A DNA stretch of 23,864 nt from a virus. Of the stretch, positions 1,155 through 23,654 are shown one piece after another (position 1 is the first letter of the stretch; each line of letters opens with the position of its first letter). The notes beneath the pieces were generated by a model. The model was not told where the DNA came from. It worked only from the letters and a program-made list of their open reading frames with translations, and did no database searches. The DNA lies in the UHGV virus genome UHGV-1462696, one strand, 5' to 3'. The position numbers were made by a program, and so were the translations under genes.

Positions 1155-2626
1155 CAGATACAGCGTTATCTCCTGAAGAGCAGTTAATCGAGGATATTGC
1201 AGGGTTCACTCACGATCCACTTGGATATGCCCTCTATGCGTTCCCGTGGGGGGAAGAGGGGACTGAACTGGCACATGCCACCGGTCCACGTCAGTGGCAG
1301 GCCGATGCGTTCCGAGAGATACGTGATCATTTGCAGAATCCAGAGACGCGCTATCAGCCGCTTATGCTGGCACGTGCTTCTGGTCACGGTATTGGTAAAT
1401 CCGCATTCATCTCAATGCTGATCAACTGGGGCATGTCCACTTGCGAGGATTGTAAGGTCGTGGTGACCGCCAACACCGACAACCAGCTACGAACGAAGAC
1501 CTGGCCGGAAATTATCAAGTGGTCGAACCTTGCTATCACGAAAGACTGGTTTACCTGTACCGCTACCGCGATGTACAGCAATGACCCTGGGCACGACAAG
1601 CGGTGGCGGGCTGACGCAATACCCTGGTCTGAGCACAACACTGAGGCGTTCGCCGGACTACACAACGAGCGCAAACGCATCATCGTGGTGTTTGATGAAG
1701 CGTCGAACATTGCGGATCTGGTGTGGGAAGTTGCCGAGGGGGCGCTTACGGACGAAGACACTGAGATTATCTGGGTGGCGTTCGGAAACCCGACGCGTAA
1801 TACCGGACGTTTCCGCGAATGTTTCCGCAAATATAAACACCGCTGGAAAACTGCGCAGATTGACAGCCGGACGGTGGAAGGCACTAACAAACAGCAGTTG
1901 CAGAAATGGGTTGATGACTACGGGGAAGACAGCGACTTCGTTAAAATCCGTGTGCGCGGCATATTCCCTGATGCATCTGAATTGCAGTTTATCCCTACCG
2001 GCCTTACTGACGAGGCAATGAAACGGGGGGTAACTGCTGCGCAGGTGGCACATGCTCCGGTGATAATCGGCGTTGACCCGGCATACTCCGGCGTTGATGA
2101 CGCTGTGATATACCTGCGGCAGGGGCTGCACAGTAAGGTGCTGTGGACTGGCAACAAGACCACTGACGATCTGATTATGGCGAAGCGCATCGCTGACTTT
2201 GAAGACCAGTATCAGGCTGACGCGGTATTCATCGACTTCGGTTACGGAACCGGTTTGAAGTCAATCGGTGATGGCTGGGGACGTACATGGCAACTTGTTC
2301 CGTTCGGTGGCGCGTCTACTGACCCGCAGATGCTCAACAAGCGTGGGGAGATGTTCAACTCATGTAAGACATGGCTGAGGCTGGGCGGTATGCTGGATGA
2401 CCAGGAAACAGCGGACGACCTGTCGACGGCAGAGTACAAAGTTCGCGTGGACGGTAAAATCGTTATCGAACCGAAGGAAGATATCAAAGAACGACTTGGG
2501 CGTTCGCCGGGGAAAGGCGATGCGCTATTGCTGACGTTTGCTTTCCCTGTGTCGAAGCGCCTGCGAATTCCCGGTCAGCAGAACCAGCAAGGCAAGGCCA
2601 TCACAGATTACGACCCGTTTGCGTGA
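1151..2626 (+). CDS. terL: Terminase large subunit (ATPase plus nuclease)
   Basis: 491 aa; Walker A-like ARASGHGIGKS, Walker B-like IIVVFDEAS, C-terminal RNaseH-like nuclease segment (VIIGVDPAYSG); GTG start overlapping terS stop (GTGA). Confidence 0.88.
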   Translation: MTDTALSPEEQLIEDIAGFTHDPLGYALYAFPWGEEGTELAHATGPRQWQADAFREIRDHLQNPETRYQPLMLARASGHGIGKSAFISMLINWGMSTCEDCKVVVTANTDNQLRTKTWPEIIKWSNLAITKDWFTCTATAMYSNDPGHDKRWRADAIPWSEHNTEAFAGLHNERKRIIVVFDEASNIADLVWEVAEGALTDEDTEIIWVAFGNPTRNTGRFRECFRKYKHRWKTAQIDSRTVEGTNKQQLQKWVDDYGEDSDFVKIRVRGIFPDASELQFIPTGLTDEAMKRGVTAAQVAHAPVIIGVDPAYSGVDDAVIYLRQGLHSKVLWTGNKTTDDLIMAKRIADFEDQYQADAVFIDFGYGTGLKSIGDGWGRTWQLVPFGGASTDPQMLNKRGEMFNSCKTWLRLGGMLDDQETADDLSTAEYKVRVDGKIVIEPKEDIKERLGRSPGKGDALLLTFAFPVSKRLRIPGQQNQQGKAITDYDPFA

Positions 2627-2627
2627 T

Positions 2628-3368
2628 TTATTGCTTATTTTTCACGGCTTCAGCAATCATTCTCTCAGCCTGTGATGTATATGTTTTTCGCAAGGGTTCA
2701 TGGCCCATATGCAATACGATACTTTCCTTTTCTTTTTCCTTTAATTCTTGTATGAGATTATTTATTTTGGCCTCCCTATCTTCAAGCATTCTGGCGGACT
2801 TTTCTGCCTCAATCTTTAACGCTGCAGCCACTGATTGCATGTTTTCCAGCTTCTTATTCAATTCCAAAACCTTATCGGAGAGCCTATCTCTTTCCGACGT
2901 TAGCTCACCCATCCTGGCCTGTGACTCCGTAATTCTTTCCTTCATAGCCTGTATGTCTTTTTCGGCGCCAGTCTTAACTTTGTCGTATGTCACATCGTGC
3001 TTTGCCTTCAGGCGCTGCAGGCGTGTGGCGCGATGAATGCGCTTGGCCTTCCGGTGGTTCTCTATCGAATCGTAATTATCAAGAGGTTTGGCTTGCCACT
3101 TTGAAATCACGTTGTTGATCCAGGGCATGCCGCCGCACAGGATTATTGCTGAAACACATGGGAATGCTAATACCGTTTTCCAACTGCTATTGCTGGAAAT
3201 GTAGGTGATCTTGTCGATGATGCTGGAGTCGCTGAGGAGTAAGTATAAAATCGACTTCCAGTTAAAGGCGCACCATGACAGTGCGAACGCTCCAAACACT
3301 GGATTTCTGACCCTTTGCGCAGCGGTATTAACGGTTGAAGATAGGTATTCTTTAAGTGATTCAAGCAT
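2628..3368 (-). CDS. Membrane-anchored coiled-coil protein of unknown function (accessory; candidate abortive-infection / superinfection-exclusion effector)
   Basis: 246 aa; two hydrophobic segments in the N-terminal ~90 aa (FGAFALSWCAFNWKSILYLLL; VLAFPCVSAIILCGGMPWI) followed by ~130 aa of heptad-like charged sequence; AT-rich relative to flanks by eye; AAGGG SD upstream of ATG at 3368; opposite strand to the late operon. Confidence 0.6.
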   Translation of the reverse strand: MLESLKEYLSSTVNTAAQRVRNPVFGAFALSWCAFNWKSILYLLLSDSSIIDKITYISSNSSWKTVLAFPCVSAIILCGGMPWINNVISKWQAKPLDNYDSIENHRKAKRIHRATRLQRLKAKHDVTYDKVKTGAEKDIQAMKERITESQARMGELTSERDRLSDKVLELNKKLENMQSVAAALKIEAEKSARMLEDREAKINNLIQELKEKEKESIVLHMGHEPLRKTYTSQAERMIAEAVKNKQ

Positions 3369-3398
3369 GTCCAGGCCCTTTTAGGTTTTTTTCTGATT

Positions 3399-3413
3399 CT
3401 ACCTTTAAGGTAA
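3399..3413. promoter_or_regulatory. TTACC-N5-GGTAA-type palindrome (CTACC-TTTAA-GGTAA) in the promoter of the 246-aa gene
   Basis: 31-45 nt upstream of the ATG at 3368; on the gene strand the site reads TTACCTTAAAGGTAGAAT, so the -10-like TAGAAT overlaps it. Confidence 0.5.
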
Positions 3414-3480
3414 TCTTCGGTCATTATGAAAAACGTATCCCTATGAGGGGATAATGTCGTTGATATCCTCTGATGAGGAT

Positions 3481-3506
3481 AAAACAAAGCCAGCTCATCG
3501 GCTGGC
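3481..3506 (-). terminator. Intrinsic terminator on minus strand (GCCAGC-cgatga-GCTGGC followed by TTTGTTTT)
   Basis: Read directly; immediately downstream of palindrome B and the stop of the 3528-3899 gene. Confidence 0.6.
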
Positions 3507-3511
3507 TGTTT

Positions 3512-3523
3512 GTGACATGTCAC
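3512..3523. repeat. Perfect 12-bp palindrome GTGACATGTCAC, copy B
   Basis: Read directly; 5 nt after the stop codon (3528-3530, minus strand) of the 123-aa gene. Confidence 0.9.
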
Positions 3524-3527
3524 GGTG

Positions 3528-3899
3528 TTATTGCTCGCTTAGCTTCTGCTTCAGCAAGTAACCTTCGAGCATCCAGATTTTGTTTACAGCATTCTGCCGG
3601 GCAATCTTCCGACCAATTTCTGCATCAAAGTTTTCATGGCTTGCACAGGCGCTTTCTCCGGTTACAGTAAATCCGTTGCGCAGCACCAGAACGCAGAAGG
3701 TCAGCAGAGAAAGTGATTCGTGCGGCTGGTAGTTTACCTCTCCGCCAGTATGTTTCGCTTTTATGGCTTTGCCAAAGGCACCATCTTCTGCTGTGAAATA
3801 TGCCTCCTGAGCAATAATGCCTTCGATATGGTCTGGCGTAACGCGCGGTGCCGTTTTGCCTTTCTCAACGATTTCTTTTTCGATTTGCTTGTCGTTCAT
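3528..3899 (-). CDS. Hypothetical small phage protein (possibly Gp49-like family)
   Basis: 123 aa; strong SD AAGGTGA 4-5 nt before ATG at 3899; central motif CVLVLRNGFTVTGESACASHENFD resembles small conserved phage proteins; family assignment is from memory only. Confidence 0.55.
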   Translation of the reverse strand: MNDKQIEKEIVEKGKTAPRVTPDHIEGIIAQEAYFTAEDGAFGKAIKAKHTGGEVNYQPHESLSLLTFCVLVLRNGFTVTGESACASHENFDAEIGRKIARQNAVNKIWMLEGYLLKQKLSEQ

Positions 3900-3910
3900 A
3901 ATCTCACCTT

Positions 3911-3934
3911 AAAAAAATGCCCGGCGAACCGGGC
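3911..3934 (-). terminator. Intrinsic terminator on minus strand (GCCCGG-ttcg-CCGGGC followed by ATTTTTTT), immediately upstream of the RBS of the 123-aa gene
   Basis: Read directly from the reverse complement of 3911-3934. Confidence 0.6.
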
Positions 3935-4010
3935 GAACTGGAAGCAATGAGTTATGCCTTCCGTGGCTGTACGTGTTTACAGCATGAAGTCATCGCAATG
4001 GCGTCCTGCT

Positions 4011-4054
4011 GTAAAAAGGGCGGTGATAGTCCTTCAAGGGAAACTATCACCGCC
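4011..4054 (-). terminator. Long hairpin (12-bp stem GGCGGTGATAGT/ACTATCACCGCC, 12-nt loop) followed by CTTTTTA on minus strand; probable tRNA terminator
   Basis: Read directly; about 44 nt downstream of the tRNA 3' end. Confidence 0.5.
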
Positions 4055-4097
4055 AAGCACCTGGAACTTCTGGCATCACGGTCCTTAGGCGTGATTC

Positions 4098-4174
4098 TGG
4101 CGTGGCATGCAGGATTCGAACCTGCGACCAACCGCTTAGAAGGCGGTTGCTCTGTCCAACTGAGCTAATGCCAC
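4098..4174 (-). tRNA. tRNA-Arg (anticodon UCU), phage-encoded
   Basis: Reverse complement gives a 77-nt cloverleaf: acceptor GTGGCAT/ATGCCAC, D-arm GCTC-AGTTGGACA-GAGC, anticodon stem ACCGC/GCGGT with loop CTTCTAA (anticodon TCT), T-arm GCAGG-TTCGAAT-CCTGC, discriminator G, encoded CCA. Confidence 0.85.
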
Positions 4175-4496
4175 AACGCTGAGAGCACTTAGCCTGTTAA
4201 GGCGCCACACTTTGTCGCGGCTCCATAAATGCTCTCATCGTTGTACCCTCGTCTCTTCCGAGGCGTCACACCGAATCGCCGGGATGGTGAATCCCCGTGC
4301 GCGGAATAAAACCGCTCGACTTGCACATTCCGGCTACCTGGTTCGTTTGCCCGAGCAAGGGAGGGTGTCCCTTAAACGTATCCAGACCGCTATCGGCGCA
4401 TGTGCCATACGCCGTACTGCTCAAAATAAAAGCTCACTCCACCTGTTCAATTTAACGACAAGCCAGTCAGGTTAATAACCGGAATGAACCCTTTAC

Positions 4497-4511
4497 TTAC
4501 CTGAAAGGTAA
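4497..4511. promoter_or_regulatory. TTACC-TGAAA-GGTAA palindrome (17-mer identical to the site at 23536) in the divergent region between the tRNA and the portal module
   Basis: Read directly; 91 nt upstream of the ATG at 4602. Confidence 0.55.
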
Positions 4512-4601
4512 TAATTTGTGCGTTAAATGTCAACTTCCTACGATAAATAAATCATATGTGGTTAAATTGGTAATAATTTAATTGCGTACGGAGTCATTGA
4601 T

Positions 4602-4808
4602 ATGTGCATGGGTAGCTCACCATCAGTGCCTGCAACACCAGAAATTCAGGCAGCACCACAGGAGCAGGATGCCGCCGTTGTTGATGCCCGCGACGAAGAA
4701 ACTCGTCGCCGTCGCGCTGCTGCTGGTCGTAGTTCTACGCTGCTTACCGGTTCTCAGGGCGACACATCAACCGCTAATACCAGCGGTAAAACGCTGCTTG
4801 GTCAGTAA
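4602..4808 (+). CDS. Small hypothetical protein (68 aa) upstream of portal
   Basis: ATG preceded by GGAGTCATTGA, the same 11-mer that precedes the portal start; GC-rich coding-like composition; function unknown. Confidence 0.4.
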   Translation: MCMGSSPSVPATPEIQAAPQEQDAAVVDARDEETRRRRAAAGRSSTLLTGSQGDTSTANTSGKTLLGQ

Positions 4809-4822
4809 CCGGAGTCATTGAA

Positions 4823-6502
4823 ATGGCGGAAACAACTAAAGAGCGATTGAACAAACAGTTCGCACAACTTGAAAGCGAGCGTCAGTCGTTCGAGCCGCAC
4901 TGGCGCGAGTTGAGTGATTACATCAACCCGCGTGGTTCCCGCTTTCTGACTTCTGAGGTCAACCGTAACGATCGACGCAATACACGCATTATTGATTCGA
5001 CCGGGACTATGGCGGCGCGCACTCTCGCCAGCGGCATGATGTCAGGCATCACAAGCCCCGCGCGTCCGTGGTTTCGCCTGGCTACGCCAGATCCTGAAAT
5101 GATGGATTATGGCCCTGTTAAGTTGTGGCTTGAGGCGGTGCAGAACCGCATGAACGATATGTTCAATAAGTCGAATCTCTATCAGTCGCTGCCGCAGTTA
5201 TACGGAAGCCTCGGCACATACAGCACTGGTGCAATGGCAGTGCTGGAGGATGACGAGGACATCATTCGCACAATGCCATTCCCGATAGGCAGTTACTACC
5301 TGGCTAACTCACCTCGTGGCAGTGTGGACACCTGTTTTCGCAAGTTCTCTATGACTGTTCGTCAGCTTGTTCAGGAGTTCGGGCTAAATAACGTCAGCGA
5401 ATCCGTAAAAAGCATGTGGGAAAGCGGCACTTACGAGAAGTGGATTGAAGTGATGCATTCGGTTTACCCGAACATTGACCGCGATACATCGAAGCTGGAT
5501 AGCAAGAACAAGCCATTCAAATCGGTTTATTACGAGGTTGGCGGCGATAACGACAAGTTGTTGCGTGAGTCCGGATTCGATGAGTTTCCAATTATGGCTC
5601 CGCGCTGGGAAGTTAACGGCGAAGATGTTTATGGATCATCATGCCCGGGTATGCTGGCGCTTGGACCTGTTAAGGCATTGCAGCTTCTCCAGAAGCGCAA
5701 GTCGCAGTTGATTGATAAAGCCACCAATCCGCCGATGGTTGCTCCGACTTCCCTCAAGAATCAGCGCGCCTCCCTTCTTCCTGGCGACATCACGTATATC
5801 GATCAGATTACTGGTCAGGATGGTTTCAGGCCTGCTTATCTGGTTAACCCCAGTACAGCAGATCTGGTGGCAGACATTCAGGACACTCGCCAAATCATTA
5901 ACAGCGCCTACTTTGTCGATCTGTTCATGATGTTGCAGAACATCAATACCCGCTCGATGCCTGTTGAAGCGGTGATCGAAATGAAAGAAGAAAAACTTTT
6001 GATGTTGGGGCCGGTTCTGGAGCGTCTGAACGACGAATGTCTTAATCCTCTCATTGATCGCGCTTTCTCGATGATGGTGCGTAAAAACATGCTGCCGCCA
6101 CCGCCTGACGCGATGGAAGGCATGCCCCTGAAGGTCGAATACATTTCCGTCATGGCTCAGGCGCAGAAGTCTATCGGCCTGTCCAGTCTGGCGTCCACGG
6201 TTAACTTCATTGGTCAACTTGCGCAAGCGAAACCAGAAGCTCTCGACAAACTCAACGTTGATCAGGCGATCGATGCATTCGCTGATATGTCCGGAGTGTC
6301 TCCAACCGTCATTGTTCCGCAGGAACAGGTTGAGCAGGCTCGCCAGCAACGGGCACAGCAGCAACAGCAGCAACAAATGATGGCGATGGGGATGGCGGCG
6401 GCACAGGGTGCCAAGACGCTAAGCGAAGCTAAAACTTCGGATCCGAGTGTTTTGTCAGCTATGGCGAATGCAGTTAGTGGTCAGGGTGGGCAATCACAAT
6501 GA
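4823..6502 (+). CDS. Portal protein (T7 gp8-like head-to-tail connector)
   Basis: 559 aa; position after terminase; Q/M/A-rich C-terminal tail (QQQQQQQMMAMGMAAAQG) resembling the T7 gp8 C-terminus; strong SD. Confidence 0.75.
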   Translation: MAETTKERLNKQFAQLESERQSFEPHWRELSDYINPRGSRFLTSEVNRNDRRNTRIIDSTGTMAARTLASGMMSGITSPARPWFRLATPDPEMMDYGPVKLWLEAVQNRMNDMFNKSNLYQSLPQLYGSLGTYSTGAMAVLEDDEDIIRTMPFPIGSYYLANSPRGSVDTCFRKFSMTVRQLVQEFGLNNVSESVKSMWESGTYEKWIEVMHSVYPNIDRDTSKLDSKNKPFKSVYYEVGGDNDKLLRESGFDEFPIMAPRWEVNGEDVYGSSCPGMLALGPVKALQLLQKRKSQLIDKATNPPMVAPTSLKNQRASLLPGDITYIDQITGQDGFRPAYLVNPSTADLVADIQDTRQIINSAYFVDLFMMLQNINTRSMPVEAVIEMKEEKLLMLGPVLERLNDECLNPLIDRAFSMMVRKNMLPPPPDAMEGMPLKVEYISVMAQAQKSIGLSSLASTVNFIGQLAQAKPEALDKLNVDQAIDAFADMSGVSPTVIVPQEQVEQARQQRAQQQQQQQMMAMGMAAAQGAKTLSEAKTSDPSVLSAMANAVSGQGGQSQ

Positions 6503-18117: not shown

Positions 18118-20666
18118 TGGCAGCAAACGAATTTTTGACGCAGTGCGAGCGCAGTGTAAATGCTGCCGCTGGTCGCGAGCTTTCTTCCGATGAGATGGAG
18201 TCGCTGGTGCGTGACATGAACGACACCACTAGGCGAATTCTGGCGACCAATGAGGCGCTGTCTCTGGAAGAGGCCGCGATGCGCGCAGCGGAAGAACTGA
18301 GCAATGCCGATATGCTGGCAAAACAGATTGAGGCTCGCAATAAGGCAATCAACGCCCGTATTGCCGCACAACGACTTAGAGAGCTTCGTACTATCTGGAA
18401 AGACCGCCCGGATATCGGGCTTGAAGCAATGCTGGTTGGCCGCAACGATGCGCGTACCGGCGCCCGCCGGTCGGTATCTTCGGAGGTGGCGCAACTGCGC
18501 GGCAAGTATCATTCCGGTATCAACTACGATTTTGACCGTGCCGGACTGGTGCAATTCATCGCCAGCGGCAGCAATGACCGGGAAATTGCCGATGCAATGT
18601 GGCGCATAGGGCGCGGGCAGTCAACTGACGGTATGACAAAGCAATCCGTAAGCGCTGCACAAATCATCATGAAATGGCAGGAAACTGCGCGCATTGATGA
18701 GAACCGCGCCGGGGCATGGATACGCAAAGAGCCGGGCTATATAGTTCGCCAGTCACACGACATCATGAAGATCCGCGCCGCAGGTTATGAAGCATGGCGA
18801 AATGCTATTCTCCCGCGCCTTGATGAGCGCACTTTTGACGGCGTGGCTGACCGCGAGCAGTTCATGCGTAACATTTATAACGGGCTGGCTTCCGGCGTGC
18901 ATCTTACATCTGAAAAGCCCGATTGGATGAATGGCTTTAAGGGATCGGCGAACGCAGCTAAACGCGCCAGCCAAGAGCGAATTTTGCACTTCAAAGATGG
19001 TATCTCGTGGCACGAGTACAACCAGCAATTCGGCACCGGCAGCCTGCGAGAAGCGCTGTTTGGTGGCTTAAACAGCGCTGCCCGCACAACGGGCATGATG
19101 CGCGTACTGGGCACTAACCCACAGAACATGTTTAAGTACCTGACGGACGCCATTGCTGAAGATATCAGCAAATCCGGAAGACCGGCAGCGTTGGCTGACT
19201 ACATGACGAAGGTGCGTCGCATTAACCGTACCGTAATGCCGCAGGTTGACGGCTCGCTAAATATTCCTGGCAGCGTAGGCTGGGCCAATGCGTCGGCGGC
19301 TGTACGCGGCTGGTTGCGTATGAGCCAACTTGGTGGTGCGGTAATCTCATCGTTTAACGACGTGCCTATCGCCGCTACCGAGATGCGCTACCAAGGGCAG
19401 AATTTTATGCAGGCGTTGCTTGGTGCTATGAGAGGCCGCTTCACGCGTTACAACAGCGCGGAGCAGAAAGAGATCCTTTCCTCTATCGGAGTTTATTCCG
19501 ACTCCATGACGCAGGAAATCATCCGGCGCATATCTGGTGATGACACGCTGAATGGAAAGCTTGGTCGCGCGCAGCAGCTTTTCTTTAAGTACAACCTCAT
19601 GAACTTCTGGACCGAGAGCGGTCGCAACAGCAACGCCATGATGATAACCAACTGGCTTGCAAAGAATGCTGACCAGTCTCATGCGCGGCTACCGGAAGAC
19701 CTGCGACGCGTGCTGGATCTGCACGGTATTGGCGAACGTGAGTGGGAAATTTTTCGCAACATGGACATGGCCGATAGCGAAGGTCGTAAGTTCATGACGA
19801 CCAGCGGCATCCGCGGCGTGCCTGACGAAGTGATTGCCGGTTATGTAGAGAGTAAGGGGATCAAACCAACGCAGCGCGCTATCGCTGACGCACGCGATCA
19901 ATTGGAAGGGCAGTTGCGCGGCTACATCCTTGACCGCCTGAATATCGCCATGTCAGAGCCTGGCGATCGCACGCAGGCGTTTATGAAGATGGGCACGGTG
20001 CCAGGAACGGTGGCTGGGGAAGCAATACGATTCGCTGGTCAGTACAAATCGTTCACTGCAAGCTTCATGCAGAACGTACTAGGACGCGAAGTATTCGGGC
20101 GTGGTTATATTCCTGCTGGGCTTGGTGAGTCGAAAACCGGATCGCTGACGAATGCGCTGCTACGTAACGGGAAGGGGGCTTTCCTTGGTGCTGCAAACCT
20201 CTTTGTCTGGGCGACTATGTTTGGTTATATCTCCATGCAGTCAAAACTCATGCTGAAAGGGCAAACACCACGCCCGGCAGATGCCAAGACGTTTCTCGCA
20301 GCCGCATCTCAGGGGGGCGGTCTTGGCATCTTGGGTGACTTCATGTTTGGCGAGGTCAACCGCATGGGGGCCGGGCCGGTTACGTCGCTAATGGGGCCAG
20401 CAGCATCGAACGCTGACAGCATTATCACGCTGCTCCAGCAGACCACGAGAGGGGATGCAGATTTGGGTGACTGGTATCGCACGGCACTTGACAATACGCC
20501 ATTCCTCAACGTGTTCTGGCTTCGTACGGCGATGAATGGTTTAATATTGAACCGGATACAAGATGCCCTTGACCCAGGCTCTCTTGAGCGTTATCAGCGC
20601 CGTGTTGAGCGTGAGCAGGGTAACGACTTTCTGATCCCACCATCGCAGTTCATGCTAGGTAAATAA
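18117..20666 (+). CDS. Putative internal virion / ejection protein (about 850 aa)
   Basis: Large ORF, TGATG overlap with upstream gene; hydrophobic C-terminal segments (FLGAANLFVWATMFGYI) consistent with a membrane-interacting ejection protein. Confidence 0.5.
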   Translation: MAANEFLTQCERSVNAAAGRELSSDEMESLVRDMNDTTRRILATNEALSLEEAAMRAAEELSNADMLAKQIEARNKAINARIAAQRLRELRTIWKDRPDIGLEAMLVGRNDARTGARRSVSSEVAQLRGKYHSGINYDFDRAGLVQFIASGSNDREIADAMWRIGRGQSTDGMTKQSVSAAQIIMKWQETARIDENRAGAWIRKEPGYIVRQSHDIMKIRAAGYEAWRNAILPRLDERTFDGVADREQFMRNIYNGLASGVHLTSEKPDWMNGFKGSANAAKRASQERILHFKDGISWHEYNQQFGTGSLREALFGGLNSAARTTGMMRVLGTNPQNMFKYLTDAIAEDISKSGRPAALADYMTKVRRINRTVMPQVDGSLNIPGSVGWANASAAVRGWLRMSQLGGAVISSFNDVPIAATEMRYQGQNFMQALLGAMRGRFTRYNSAEQKEILSSIGVYSDSMTQEIIRRISGDDTLNGKLGRAQQLFFKYNLMNFWTESGRNSNAMMITNWLAKNADQSHARLPEDLRRVLDLHGIGEREWEIFRNMDMADSEGRKFMTTSGIRGVPDEVIAGYVESKGIKPTQRAIADARDQLEGQLRGYILDRLNIAMSEPGDRTQAFMKMGTVPGTVAGEAIRFAGQYKSFTASFMQNVLGREVFGRGYIPAGLGESKTGSLTNALLRNGKGAFLGAANLFVWATMFGYISMQSKLMLKGQTPRPADAKTFLAAASQGGGLGILGDFMFGEVNRMGAGPVTSLMGPAASNADSIITLLQQTTRGDADLGDWYRTALDNTPFLNVFWLRTAMNGLILNRIQDALDPGSLERYQRRVEREQGNDFLIPPSQFMLGK

Positions 20667-20668
20667 TA

Positions 20669-21229
20669 ATGAAGGCAATTATATTTTTTGTTTCAATATT
20701 GATGTCTGCATTTTCTTTTGCAGGGCAAAATGTTAAATGCGAACTTCAATACTTTGGAGATAACGATAAATTTAAGGTAACTCAGTTTTCTTTTATGGGG
20801 ATTCCATCTGATTCATACCTTTATACCTGTGCCGACTGTGGAGGCATCCAGATAAACGTGTTCCCATCTATTCAGACTGTTGCTTCCTACTCATTTGAAA
20901 ACAACATTGATTTCGAAAGGAAAATCAATGCTGAATACAACAGAAAAGACATAGCTAAACTTGAGATGGAAAACGTTACTCAAGGCGGGAGAATAAAATA
21001 TTCAATCACCGATACTGGTTTGGCAGAGTTTTACCCAGAGGGCAAAAAGATAAGCTACCTCTACTTTTTAGCCAAGCAACAAAATGGTAAAGAACAAGTA
21101 GGTTATTCAGGATTTGTTACCTCTAACGGGGATAAGTCATGCTCAATTATTGCGACATATCCAGGAAAAGAAATTTCTTTTCTGGGAAGTAAATCTTTAA
21201 GCTACTTTATGAATCATATATCAATGTAG
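20669..21229 (+). CDS. Secreted or periplasmic hypothetical protein (moron)
   Basis: Signal peptide MKAIIFFVSILMSAFSFA then GQN, no lipobox; strongly AT-rich codon usage unlike the flanking virion genes; starts 2 nt after the upstream stop, so likely co-transcribed with late genes. Confidence 0.6.
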   Translation: MKAIIFFVSILMSAFSFAGQNVKCELQYFGDNDKFKVTQFSFMGIPSDSYLYTCADCGGIQINVFPSIQTVASYSFENNIDFERKINAEYNRKDIAKLEMENVTQGGRIKYSITDTGLAEFYPEGKKISYLYFLAKQQNGKEQVGYSGFVTSNGDKSCSIIATYPGKEISFLGSKSLSYFMNHISM

Positions 21230-21230
21230 C

Positions 21231-21242
21231 GTGACATGTCAC
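21231..21242. repeat. Perfect 12-bp palindrome GTGACATGTCAC, copy C
   Basis: Read directly; 2 nt after the stop of the 186-aa gene and immediately before a terminator. Confidence 0.9.
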
Positions 21243-21266
21243 AGGCCGCTTTCGCGGCCTTGTTTT
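21243..21266 (+). terminator. Intrinsic terminator (AGGCCGC-tttc-GCGGCCT followed by GTTTTT) ending the + strand late transcript
   Basis: Read directly. Confidence 0.7.
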
Positions 21267-21304
21267 TAACGAATGCCACCGCCGCCCGGGCGGGAATCCG
21301 CAGA

Positions 21305-21329
21305 CACAAAAAAGCCCGCAACGCGGGCT
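21305..21329 (-). terminator. Intrinsic terminator on minus strand (AGCCCGC-gtt-GCGGGCT followed by TTTTTTGT), overlapping the stop of the YafO-like gene
   Basis: Read from the reverse complement. Confidence 0.6.
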
Positions 21330-21874
21330 TATTCCTTCCATTTATCAGAAAAAAGATCTTCTTCTAAAGGCATTGGTTCTGTTTTTGTTTTCTCAAAGAA
21401 TTGATAACTGATAGTGATTGCTTCCTCTTTAAACTCTTCTTGCTCAGTTATGTTGTGGGCATCTGCGTCAACAAAAAACATAACCAGCGCATCACGATTG
21501 TGATTTACCGAATAAACTAAAAAGCAATCACTTGTTGGTATGCATTTTACTTGCACAGACGCTATATTTTTCCATGCATCCCAAGATGATTTTTTACCAG
21601 TGTGTTTTTTATCACTATCTTCTGGAATATAGTCTTGGTTATCGACATGAGTATGCCTGACATTTAGTTTAAGCATTTCTGTCGGACGAGCAAATGCAGC
21701 ATCTTTACCAAGAGATGGATGGTATCCCGTTTTCCAATACTGGGTAAAGGCATCAGATACTTTCTTCAGCTCAAGATCAGATGCACAAAGGGCCGAGAAA
21801 TTTTGCGTATGCAATACTCGACCCTTATATCTGACAATTTGATTTTTATCATTCTGCGACGCAGACGAACTCAT
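21329..21874 (-). CDS. YafO-like toxin candidate (ribosome-dependent mRNA interferase family) with acidic C-terminal tail
   Basis: Motifs FTQYWKTGYHPSLGKDAAF, NVRHTHV and CFLVYSVNHNRDALVMFFVDADAH parallel YafO segments as recalled (FISYKRDGVLPDIFGRDALY; VAHIHL; AHLVYCQGAFDEQAWLLIAILKPEPH); AT-rich; AAGGA SD before ATG at 21874; the track ORF extends to 21901. Confidence 0.5.
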   Translation of the reverse strand: MSSSASQNDKNQIVRYKGRVLHTQNFSALCASDLELKKVSDAFTQYWKTGYHPSLGKDAAFARPTEMLKLNVRHTHVDNQDYIPEDSDKKHTGKKSSWDAWKNIASVQVKCIPTSDCFLVYSVNHNRDALVMFFVDADAHNITEQEEFKEEAITISYQFFEKTKTEPMPLEEDLFSDKWKE

Positions 21875-22028
21875 AATTTTCCTTATTGTTACGAGAATCA
21901 AAGAAAGCTCGGGATACGCGACTTGCGTGATCTTTTGTCATAGTAACTTTTACGTACTCTACGCTTCCATTGAAAGAACGTCTTGCGGCAGCTTGCGCTC
22001 TACGCATCTGCAATTTTTCGTTTCGCAT
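21849..22028 (-). CDS. Small basic ORF (59 aa, below the track cutoff); candidate antitoxin or regulator
   Basis: Hand-translated from the reverse complement: MRNEKLQMRRAQAAARRSFNGSVEYVKVTMTKDHASRVSRAFFDSRNNKENYEFVCVAE; GAGG SD 7 nt upstream; overlaps the start of the YafO-like gene by 26 nt in another frame; sigma70-like promoter TTGGTT-17-TGTAAT upstream. Confidence 0.3.
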   Translation of the reverse strand: MRNEKLQMRRAQAAARRSFNGSVEYVKVTMTKDHASRVSRAFFDSRNNKENYEFVCVAE

Positions 22029-22088
22029 GACATTACCTCATATCTCATAAGTTCATTACACGGATTAATAAAAATGAAACCAATCCGT

Positions 22089-22103
22089 TTACCCTTGAGG
22101 TAA
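22089..22103. promoter_or_regulatory. TTACC-CTTGA-GGTAA palindrome adjacent to the predicted promoter of the small-ORF / YafO-like unit
   Basis: Read directly; 61-75 nt upstream of the ATG at 22028. Confidence 0.5.
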
Positions 22104-22175
22104 TAGTACGCTATTCACCCACAGTCTGCAATCTGTACAGAATTATTTAAAGGCACATCCCTGTGCCGCCGCCCG

Positions 22176-22886
22176 TCAGAAGAACCCAGCCTTGTCGTTG
22201 ATGTACTCCGCGTGAGTCTGGATATCACGCAGGCATTTGCTCACACCAACGATGTAGCAAAACATGGTGGTCAGCTCCGCCGCCGCGCCCGATACATCGT
22301 GCCCGTCTTCCTGCAACTGGTTCAGCAAATTCATCAGCAGTGAGTTCTCCGTCAGGCCGAGAACACCAGACGGAGAATGAATCAGACTGCGGTAGCCGGG
22401 CTTCAGTGGGGCACTGTAGGTTTTGTTCTCTATCTTCATTGCCTGCATCACTGCTGATGCTGTGGCGTTGGCTACCTGGTCGGCAACCATCTTTATGCGT
22501 TCTTCCTGCGGGAGCGAGTTTTTAATGTAACTTCCGGTGCGGCGGATCTGAGGAAGAACCTCACCTGTAACCCATTTACGAAAGCGGTAGGGGATAGTGC
22601 CTGGTGTCACCGCATCGCGGCAGCGGAGGATCAGTGTGTAGAGGCCTGACTCGGAGATGATGTTGATCTCTTTTACTCGGCTGTCAAAAATTGCACGATG
22701 TTCATGCCCTATGTTGAACATAGACCTTTCATCATCATCCAGTTTTTCAAGTGCTTGGGTGACGTTTTGGATACGCAGCGCACTACAAACGTCTTGGGCT
22801 ACAAACCATGGTTGGCCATCGATAATGATGGAACGGATAGGGTTAACAGATTCAAATTTGAAGATGGCAGTTTGAGCATTAGCCAT
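22176..22886 (-). CDS. ant: Phage antirepressor-like protein (N-terminal Bro-N domain plus C-terminal Ant-type domain)
   Basis: N-terminal AIFKFESVNPIRSIIIDGQPWFVAQDVCSALRIQNVTQALEKLDDDE is a typical Bro-N signature; ATG at 22886 with GGAG SD is preferred over the GTG at 22901 used by the track. Confidence 0.75.
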   Translation of the reverse strand: MANAQTAIFKFESVNPIRSIIIDGQPWFVAQDVCSALRIQNVTQALEKLDDDERSMFNIGHEHRAIFDSRVKEINIISESGLYTLILRCRDAVTPGTIPYRFRKWVTGEVLPQIRRTGSYIKNSLPQEERIKMVADQVANATASAVMQAMKIENKTYSAPLKPGYRSLIHSPSGVLGLTENSLLMNLLNQLQEDGHDVSGAAAELTTMFCYIVGVSKCLRDIQTHAEYINDKAGFF

Positions 22887-23041
22887 GGTGGTTATCTCCA
22901 CTTAGTGATTTTAATCACCACCGCAACGCCAATTACTGGTGGTGAACTGGACAAGGTTGGCGTACCGGCCTAAGTGGTACCGGCGTCCTTTCGGACCCCT
23001 GCCCAGCCCACCATAATTCGGATATGGCTGTGCTTAACGCA

Positions 23042-23201: not shown

Positions 23202-23459
23202 TTATCTGGTTTGTTTTCGTAATTGTTCGGCACAATAGTCGAGATGTGTTTGCAGATCCCGCATAGACATCTGTGAGCTGGTGACGTAGTTAATCAGTGC
23301 AGTCAGTTCGGCAAGTGGGCCATCGACATTAAATCCATCCTTATCGAGATCCCGGAGTAATTTCATCAAGTGCGATCCCTCCACCAGTGACCTGACGCCT
23401 CCCGGCGTGTGAATCCTTTCGGTAAATCCGTCTTCCAGTGGATAGTGATACTGCTGCAT
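23202..23459 (-). CDS. Stand-alone paralog of the antirepressor C-terminal domain (about 85 aa)
   Basis: ERIHTPGGVRSLVEGSHLMKLLRDLDKDGFNVDGPLAELTALINYV...RDLQTHLDYC aligns with SLIHSPSGVLGLTENSLLMNLLNQLQEDGHDVSGAAAELTTMFCYI...RDIQTHAEYI in the ant product; ATG at 23459 with GGAG SD; the track ORF begins at 23525. Confidence 0.6.
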   Translation of the reverse strand: MQQYHYPLEDGFTERIHTPGGVRSLVEGSHLMKLLRDLDKDGFNVDGPLAELTALINYVTSSQMSMRDLQTHLDYCAEQLRKQTR

Positions 23460-23535
23460 CTTATCTTCTCCATGTAATAACTGTATATTTATACAGTAGC
23501 AAATAATTTGTTTGCTATCCAGCACGTTTTGCGAA

Positions 23536-23550
23536 TTACCTGAAAGGTAA
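23536..23550. promoter_or_regulatory. TTACC-TGAAA-GGTAA palindrome in the divergent region between the ant paralog and the tail fibre gene
   Basis: 17-mer TTACCTGAAAGGTAATA identical to the site at 4497; 105 nt upstream of the tail fibre ATG. Confidence 0.55.
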
Positions 23551-23654
23551 TATCTGTTCGTATTTATGGGTTATCTATCCATATGTGGTTTTTTAGGTAA
23601 TAGAATGATCGGATATGCGGCGCAACGGGTGCTGCGACTATCTGGAGATTTAAC

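Follow-up and report, generated by a model that had tools for sequence, protein, structure and literature searches.

Between the gene of the large terminase subunit (TerL, 1151-2626) and the gene of a gp3 homologue that precedes the portal gene, the virus genome UHGV-1462696 carries about 2 kb of DNA whose genes lie on the opposite strand. The whole stretch of 23,864 nucleotides (nt) that was analysed is referred to below as the window. DNA and protein comparisons identified it as a temperate podophage of the phiV10/epsilon15 group, genus Uetakevirus, and its terminase-to-protease region is 96-97% identical to that of the O157 typing phages 9/10, ZX5, phiV10 and TL-2011b. The TerL-portal stretch is probably composed of a leftward accessory unit, which is ancestral in phages of the phiV10/epsilon15 type, and of a single gene that was added recently, which encodes a protein of 246 amino acids (aa) and is named here ORF246 after its open reading frame (ORF).

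In the proposed arrangement, the ancestral unit on the minus strand would consist of an operator-overlapped promoter placed back-to-back with the control region of gp3/portal, a leader of ~245 nt, a tRNA-Arg(UCU), a series of hairpins and a slot for exchangeable genes. In the lysogen, the repressor would occupy both operators and the leftward unit would be silent. During infection or upon induction, both leftward promoters would fire early, and read-through past the hairpins, possibly aided by the leader RNA, would reach the gene of an Acb4-family protein. By homology, the oligomer of this protein would soak up the cyclic-dinucleotide alarm signals of the cyclic-oligonucleotide-based antiphage signalling system (CBASS), so that the suicide effector of the host would not be triggered. 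ORF246 would be a self-contained moron with its own sigma-70 promoter under the same operator palindrome, encoding a membrane-anchored coiled-coil protein with a fast-evolving C-terminus, and it most likely acts in phage-phage or phage-host conflict, either as an exclusion or as a counter-defence protein.

The minus strand between TerL and gp3/portal contains the 246-aa ORF, a 123-aa ORF and the tRNA-Arg(UCU), and beyond them lie the gp3 homologue (68 aa, 4602-4808) and the portal gene (4823-6502; PF12236, 624 bits). A minus-strand block at this place, usually with the same tRNA, was found in phiV10, typing phage 9, TL-2011b, epsilon15 and SPN9TCW, and also in Tyrion and in Klebsiella BUCT711, ST512-KPC3phi13.3 and ST11-OXA245phi3.2. 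As the interruption was found in every relative of the genus that was examined, the terminase and portal genes were never adjacent in the phiV10/epsilon15 lineage, contrary to a preliminary description of the window, which took adjacency as the normal state and the 2 kb as one inserted island.

That description had placed opposite-strand ORFs, the tRNA-Arg(UCU), three minus-strand terminator-like hairpins and operator-like sites in the interval, and all of these are present, the operator-like sites being the palindromes at 3398-3414 and 4496-4512. Its view of the interval as AT-rich stands in part: the GC content is mildly low (46.8% vs 51.1% for the window), but this is only the 10th percentile among windows of the same size, the tRNA and its flanks reach 51-57%, and the minimum of the window lies outside the interval, at 20.5-22 kb (38%). 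Codon usage is foreign in ORF246. When relatives were compared, the boundaries of a 0.82-kb indel containing ORF246 (~2620-3446) could be drawn, but the rest of the 2 kb is shared across the genus, and the tRNA, leader RNA, terminators and Acb4-type gene go back to its ancestor.

It is thus very unlikely that the whole 2 kb represents one acquired AT-rich island with host-benefiting defence or lysogenic-conversion cargo expressed in the prophage. The opposite strand, the terminators of its own, the mildly low GC content and a slot that varies between relatives would fit such an island, but the tRNA, leader RNA, hairpins and Acb4-type gene occupy the same position across the genus, the indel comprises only 0.82 kb, the gene that can be recognised is from an anti-defence family of phages, and operator palindromes lie over both leftward promoters. 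The idea of a cargo hotspot with signals of its own was right, and the accessory genes do differ between relatives, but the recognisable cargo is phage counter-defence, from an anti-CBASS sponge family, rather than host defence or lysogenic conversion.

Operator-like palindromes, candidate promoters and leader RNA

The palindromes at 3398-3414 and 4496-4512 belong to the ATTACC-N5-GGTAAT family. Its core, TACCTNNAAGGTA, gave eight strand-hits (five distinct sites) in the window, with 0.11 expected, and looser matching added two further palindromes in tandem, at 525-541 and 543-559, which abut the probable start of the gene of the small terminase subunit, TerS (558/561; the ORF was called from 480 as a longer, TTG-initiated frame). 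The epsilon15 phage has one annotated palindrome of the operator type at the equivalent place. In the epsilon15 record, ATTACC-N5-GGTAAT sequences are annotated as repressor sites, three of them next to the gene of the repressor; further ones precede TerS, gp3, the tail fibre gene and ruvC.

Each of the two palindromes in the interval overlaps a promoter-like site reading leftward. The first, TCTACCTTTAAGGTAAT (3398-3414), fills the spacer and the -10 box of a site that a promoter scan detected on the minus strand (3396-3424, ATGACC-17-TAGAAT), a candidate sigma-70 promoter for ORF246. The same layout, (G/A)TGAC(C/T)-17-TAnnnT plus palindrome, recurs upstream of the ORF246 homologues of EC.W1-9 (39% identical) and BUCT711 (~53% identical, 65% over the aligned N-terminal part), where the flanking DNA is different. 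The second, CTTACCTGAAAGGTAAT (4496-4512), lies in a divergent control region, within a segment that hardly varies among nine phages, and corresponds to the epsilon15 site at 2931-2947. Here a site that could serve as the leftward promoter of leader RNA and tRNA was recognised by eye on the minus strand (4505-4533), with TTGACA as the -35 box (4533-4528), a 17-nt spacer and TACCTT as a weak -10 box (4510-4505) inside the operator; its TTGAC is invariant in nine phages. On the plus strand, the control region before gp3/portal (4513-4601) is nearly invariant and includes TTGTGC-17-TACGAT followed by CATATGTGGTTAAATTGGTAATAATTTAA.

As both leftward promoters are overlapped by the palindrome annotated in epsilon15 as a repressor site, it can be argued that the repressor would bind there, and that the unit would be silent in the prophage and expressed upon infection or induction. 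On expression in the prophage state and on lysogenic conversion, the preliminary description was probably wrong.

Two observations outside the interval concern the same palindromes. The region at 23535-23640, upstream of a tailspike-like gene (start at 23637), mirrors 4496-4601, with a perfect ATTACCTGAAAGGTAAT followed by CATATGTGGTT and then GGTAATA, which suggests a common promoter/operator design for rightward structural operons. Upstream of TerS, a 112-aa protein (101-439) matches phrog_536 ('transcriptional regulator'), resembles gp49 of epsilon15, has a Cys-rich C-terminus and belongs to no Pfam family; it could alternatively be the palindrome-binding factor.

Directly 5' of the tRNA, on the minus strand, a leader RNA of ~245 nt (~4175-4420) is conserved across the genus as blocks separated by variable loops. 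Helix H1 (about 4414-4394) pairs CGGCGUAUG with CAUGCGCCG, H2 (about 4263-4247) pairs CCUCG with CGAGG, H6 pairs GGUCUGG with CCAGGUA, and a closing stem (4244-4226 / 4191-4173) surrounds a variable loop. Covariation was counted in 47 copies less than 95% identical to each other. H1 was 97% paired, with one pair being A-U in 24 copies and G-C in 23 with zero mismatches, and reading of the other strand lowered the pairing to 80% because of G-U pairs. H2 was 96% paired and showed five compensatory pair types over its five pairs, and H6 was 80% paired (51% on the other strand), with one pair being C-G in 34 copies and U-A in 12. The pairing of H1, H2 and H6 collapsed when the partner columns were slid. 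Therefore, covariation and the strand asymmetry of the G-U pairs support a folded RNA on the strand of the tRNA. Single-sequence folding of 4175-4480 was uninformative (z about -2 on both strands), and RNAalifold gave a partly different long-range pairing, GCACAU/AUGUGC, which is invariant and hence carries no covariation signal.

The leader is not restricted to Uetakeviruses. An invariant 19-mer of it was present in at least 120 viral contigs, most of them with no tRNA or TerL nearby. In the cdtI phage, Stx2c-converting phages, 2H10, mEp460 and related contigs, the core of ~245 nt comes after a gene for a CI-type repressor and a promoter with an operator, and leads into an extension of ~170 nt, whose terminal terminator-like hairpin precedes the early-left genes. 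The repressor gene also precedes the core in mEp390 and in a Stenotrophomonas phage, and the copies of P1, P7, D6 and SJ46 are placed between tciABC/tRNA-Ile and ban. The copies are always operon leaders next to repressor-controlled promoters or tRNAs. In P1 (AF234173.1, 70704-70872) the core occupies the unannotated gap between trnI and ban, and some P1-like records have two matching places. In three lambdoid contigs with the full leader (L056, at 5393-5581, L108 and L124), C4 antisense RNA and isrK were detected at Rfam gathering level ~2 kb away, in an immI-like region. Rfam 15 returned only the tRNA at E <= 1 in the window between 2400 and 5000, and nothing at gathering score or at E <= 5 for the leader element of these three contigs. 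A conserved structured RNA with no Rfam family is found repeatedly in control regions of P1 and of converting phages of medical relevance.

As for its function, the leader RNA might be a cis-acting processive antiterminator like put of HK022, allowing read-through of the three hairpins that follow the tRNA, but we consider this doubtful. In Uetakeviruses the leader is located between an early-type promoter and terminator-like hairpins, the lambdoid copies (cdtI and Stx2c phages, mEp460, 2H10, mEp390) lie just past the CI-type repressor gene, and covariation supports folding of the transcribed strand. The position of these lambdoid copies is equivalent to that of PL-nutL-N in lambda and of PL-putL in HK022 (PMC9378689), and lambdoids without N are suspected of RNA antitermination (PMC12315714). 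As in HK022, a folded nascent-strand RNA would thus stand just downstream of an early-left promoter in the lambdoid phages and upstream of terminator-like hairpins. However, put is ~70 nt long with two stem-loops (PMC9378689), whereas the leader, with ~245 nt and at least three helices, is ~3.5 times longer, has another helix set and also lies beside tRNA genes in P1 and Uetakeviruses. BLAST detected no similarity to HK022 22-29 kb, a stretch for which the presence of putL is unconfirmed. The P1 copy, between tRNA-Ile and ban, also fits an antiterminator poorly, and the association with tRNAs suggests a role in processing or stability instead.

The Acb4-family gene and the slot behind the tRNA

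The tRNA-Arg with anticodon UCU (4098-4174, minus strand) was identified by ARAGORN and by the Rfam tRNA model (73.3 bits). Just downstream of it, on the same strand, lie the terminator-like hairpin T1 (4019-4054), with a 14-pair stem and CTTTTT, a hairpin with 18-bp arms (3976-4015) that is kept in relatives, and the terminator-like hairpin T3 (3919-3934), GCCCGGTTCGCCGGGC followed by a run of seven T, which is conserved in EC.W1-9 and BUCT711. The region as a whole has seven terminator-like sites, in comparison with 3.0 +/- 2.0 in shuffles. The T-run of T3 abuts the Shine-Dalgarno sequence of the 123-aa gene, 19 nt before its ATG. As the promoter scan found no promoter-like site between T1 and this ATG, transcription of the slot gene must pass T1, the 18-bp-arm hairpin and T3; this requirement follows directly from the sequence.

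The tRNA resembles other phage tRNA-Arg(UCU) genes, such as argN/argO of Stx phages, in being a rare-codon tRNA of a temperate enterobacterial phage that is placed beside accessory genes. It differs from them in lying 3' of a conserved structured RNA and in that the core structural genes here are nearly devoid of AGA (none in TerS, TerL, portal, protease and capsid), whereas ORF246 is rich in AGA/AGG.

The 123-aa gene (3528-3899, minus strand) encodes a solid member of the Acb4/PF13876 family (N4 Gp49 / Sf6 gene 66 family in Pfam), with a score of 118 bits for a cut-off of 27 (E = 2.5e-34) and the full model, 1-82, covered; all the listed homologues of the protein also carry PF13876. A search of PDB sequences with the single sequence retrieved Acb4 (9e4w) at E = 0.008, and a 20-sequence profile retrieved it at E = 8e-5 with no other credible match. 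The AlphaFold2 (AF2) model of the protein (pLDDT, a score of the predicted local distance difference test, 82.8) consists of three strands with flanking helices. When it was compared with the PDB by Foldseek, the top 13 matches were chains of 9e4w, the solved SPO1 Acb4 structure, whose protomer has a dsRBD-like alpha/beta core, with probabilities of 0.99-1.00 and a moderate target-normalised template-modelling (TM) score of 0.45-0.54, and the next, unrelated match reached <=0.41.

The PF13876 family is the Acb4 family, with 1,331 members, mostly from phages and prophages (Chang et al., PMC11722364). The Acb4 protein of the Bacillus phage SPO1 is a tetrameric sponge of 3'3'-cyclic GMP-AMP (3'3'-cGAMP), a ligand bound by 8/8 homologues assayed; c-di-AMP is bound as well by those whose phages have Gram-negative hosts, and the Gram-negative homologues differ in specificity (PMC11722364). 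Ten 3'3'-cGAMP contacts of SPO1 Acb4 (K36, F48, E49, V56, Y57, F62, N63, I66, T70 and K81) were compared with the 123-aa protein: three are kept (F48 as F77, F62 as F91, I66 as I95), six are replaced (K36 by L65, E49 by T78, V56 by C85, Y57 by A86, N63 by D92 and T70 by I99), and K81 falls outside the alignment. Both proteins are small and phage-encoded, match by hidden Markov model, profile and fold, and share an ENF..EIGR core, but they are only about 20-22% identical, the 123-aa protein has an N-terminal extension of 60 residues, and its gene, in a temperate podophage, comes after a tRNA and terminator-like hairpins. From its family, the 123-aa protein probably acts against CBASS as a sponge of cyclic dinucleotides; as a homologue, it is a further member of an already known family.

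In relatives, other genes occupy the position of the 123-aa gene. The slot gene of epsilon15, gp50, belongs to PF13876 (127 bits), and that of Klebsiella ST512-KPC3phi13.3, at the same position, belongs to PF11195, "Thoeris anti-defense 2-like" (Tad2-like; 91.7 bits). Small genes with no Pfam family are present in TL-2011b, Tyrion, SPN9TCW, ST11-OXA245phi3.2 and BUCT711, and homologues of ORF246 occupy the slot in EC.W1-9 and BUCT711. As the alternative genes include Acb4- and Tad2-like sponges, the slot downstream of the tRNA and the hairpins is a counter-defence swap site, in which immune-signal sponges and uncharacterised genes are exchanged at a fixed place behind a phage tRNA.

Loci of the anti-defence and moron kinds are known, and this hotspot is a variant of them. 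It shares with known phage anti-defence and accessory hotspots a fixed position among conserved genes and the presence of alternative small genes in close relatives. However, its place is between terminase and portal, a tRNA and a structured RNA anchor it, and its promoters bear the operator palindrome of the phage itself, so that, unlike at known hotspots and morons, expression is probably lytic and early and not from the prophage. Because of the company they keep in the slot, ORF246, gp23 of TL-2011b, gp53 of Tyrion, gp3 of SPN9TCW and the 81-aa ORF of BUCT711 are good candidates for anti-defence or exclusion proteins. The "hypothetical" block of hundreds of E. coli, Salmonella and Klebsiella prophages of the phiV10/epsilon15 type, including the O157 typing phages, could accordingly be re-annotated as an early counter-defence unit with a sponge of the Acb4 family.

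Beyond the 123-aa gene, the hairpin AGCCAGCCGATGAGCTGGCT (3488-3507) is terminator-like for this gene on the minus strand, and in phiV10 it is annotated as a plus-strand terminator after TerL. Close to it lies one of three exact copies of a perfect 12-bp palindrome, GTGACATGTCAC (436-447, 3512-3523 and 21231-21242; 0.06 expected). Each copy is at the 3' end of a rightward block, namely over the stop codon of the 112-aa regulator, beside the TerL/Acb4 terminator and after a 186-aa gene. In epsilon15 the palindrome is also found after TerL.

ORF246

The ORF246 module (~2620-3446) is the only indel with respect to phiV10, where it replaces ~17 bp. It supplies the end of TerL, whose last codons change from CCC TAT GCT TAA in phiV10 to CCG TTT GCG TGA (PYA* to PFA*), and a remnant of the old TerL end, CCCTATG, persists at 3440-3446, right before homology to phiV10 resumes. 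Apart from a microhomology with the TerL end, CCCNTNTG, no direct repeats or att-like sites were found flanking the module. ORF246 is absent from phiV10, typing phages 9/10, ZX5 and TL-2011b. Among 773 complete E. coli genomes matching the flanks, it was present in five, all of which lack the 123-aa gene; the arrangement with both genes is common among draft assemblies.

The gene itself (2628-3368, minus strand) has 44.7% GC, at the 6.5th percentile, and its 15 Arg codons include five AGA and four AGG (AGA at 20.3 per 1000 codons), two codons that are absent or nearly so from the core genes. It is convergent with TerL, with 1 nt between the stops (2624-2630) and no terminator; in BUCT711, TerL and the homologue overlap by 4 nt. 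Therefore, the transcripts of TerL and ORF246 should run antisense into each other's gene. Elsewhere, homologues are always lone opposite-strand genes at operon junctions: in lambdoid prophages at the junction of P and ninB, and in a Klebsiella prophage between the replication genes and the nin-like ones. By its presence as an indel, its putative promoter, its foreign codons and its opposite strand, ORF246 appears to behave as a moron, and it resembles the morons of lambda and HK97 in its opposite orientation, in its foreign codons and in being present in some relatives and absent from others, with a candidate promoter of its own. Regarding the pair of own promoter and own terminator, a promoter-like site is present and no terminator follows the gene.

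The protein matches phrog_4780 (E = 9e-89), to which no function is assigned. It has a weak hydrophobic helix at ~23-46 and a strong one at 63-90, and behind them a basic segment, then a long helix (101-222) and finally a short helix at the C-terminus; the positive-inside rule predicts a cytoplasmic location of the coiled coil. Its first ~160 residues are 65-80% identical across Enterobacteriaceae, and the C-terminal third is hypervariable and unalignable. An exhaustive search with residues 1-135 gave 1,349 clusters at 50% identity, in proteins of 150-450 aa in which the domain is always N-terminal. All of 101 distant relatives sampled belonged to phrog_4780 and phrog_13369; scans of them against Pfam, PADLOC and PHROG revealed no named domain in common, and a few relatives have LRR, GerE or DUF1413 domains at the C-terminus, as single fusions. 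The N-terminal domain alone had no Pfam match even at E <= 10. ORF246 is similar to exclusion proteins of the SieB/Imm type in being a small accessory protein of temperate phages with an N-terminal membrane anchor, but it has a long, presumably cytoplasmic coiled coil and a hypervariable C-terminus, and homology to them is undetectable. SieB homology (PF14163) was rejected, with no Pfam match and a probability of 1.3% when the 101-member profile was aligned with lambda SieB by hhalign.

Two roles can be considered for ORF246. It could be a superinfection-exclusion or abortive-infection protein expressed from the prophage, the palindrome not silencing its expression in the lysogen; anchored in the inner membrane, its variable C-terminus would sense a component of an invading phage and its N-terminal domain would block DNA entry or collapse the membrane. 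We regard this as a real possibility, although with less than an even chance. It would account for the moron architecture, the hydrophobic helices with a basic juxtamembrane segment, the conservation of the N-terminal 160 aa next to a hypervariable C-terminus, the distant fusions of the N-terminal domain to LRR/HTH-type domains, the lone position opposite to early lytic transcription in lambdoid prophages, and the lambdoid copy that has no palindrome. However, the similarity to SieB is negligible, PADLOC matches are coiled-coil noise, an operator palindrome covers the -10 box of ORF246 in three Uetakeviruses, and in the genus the gene shares or replaces the slot of anti-defence sponges. These last two facts would instead suit an early counter-defence protein, for example against a membrane-acting host effector, that is an alternative to the sponge in the slot, a role that seems rather unlikely at present. 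In EC.W1-9 and the prophages UTME/E47, ORF246 does take the place of the Acb4 gene, the slot is otherwise occupied by Acb4- or Tad2-like genes, and a promoter overlapped by the operator points to expression in the absence of the repressor; but this is guilt by association only, with no similarity to known anti-defence proteins, and the orientation in lambdoid prophages opposes the early lytic operon.

Several results weigh against the preferred reading of an ancestral, repressor-controlled unit with an added moron. The -10 box of the leftward promoter is weak and the promoter scan did not call the site. Repressor binding rests on the annotation of the epsilon15 record, and the paper on ZX5 contains no operator binding-site data. 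In the lambdoid KO-TP1, the -10 box and 5' untranslated region of the ORF246 homologue are homologous but the palindrome is degenerate, and the gene may be expressed from the prophage there. K36 and E49, the guanine-specific residues of SPO1 Acb4, are both replaced in the 123-aa protein. Read-through promoted by the leader RNA was not supported by a crude test, in which terminator-like sites showed no enrichment downstream of the leader (14/28 copies, and 15/28 in both controls). Finally, ORF246 matched Pfam, NCBIfam, PADLOC and PDB sequences only by coiled-coil noise (PEARLI-4, SMC, LmuB/JetC, C/EBP), and the defence models of PADLOC-DB v2 gave only noise to LmuB/JetC for ORF246 and its relatives.

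Both the leader RNA and the superfamily of ORF246 are leads that await characterisation. It is tentatively proposed, for both together, that the leader represents a new cis-acting class of transcription-processivity or RNA-processing elements that gates counter-defence genes, and the superfamily a new single-gene exclusion or counter-defence system. If so, the RNA class would span Uetakeviruses, lambdoids that look N-less (including Stx2c and cdtI converting phages), P1-like phages and a Stenotrophomonas phage, and the superfamily would combine a conserved membrane-anchor domain with fast-evolving or swapped C-terminal modules.

Elsewhere in the window

Beyond the portal gene, the window continues with head and tail genes, and an ant region is located at 22-23.5 kb. 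A full Ant homologue was found at 22176-22901, and a small minus-strand gene (23202-23525) resembles the C-terminal part of Ant; just upstream of the latter there is a LexA-box-like sequence, CTGTATATTTATACAG (23484-23499). The LexA-like box and the Ant-like gene suggest SOS-controlled antirepression, a type of control that reportedly operates in SPC32H.

The region of lowest GC content (20500-22100, 38%) contains the 186-aa gene, which matches phrog_11983, with no function assigned. It also contains a minus-strand ORF of 190 aa with a borderline match to the YafO toxin (26.1 bits, with the cut-off at 25), and an operator palindrome (22088-22104) stands before this ORF. This region looks like a second cargo spot.

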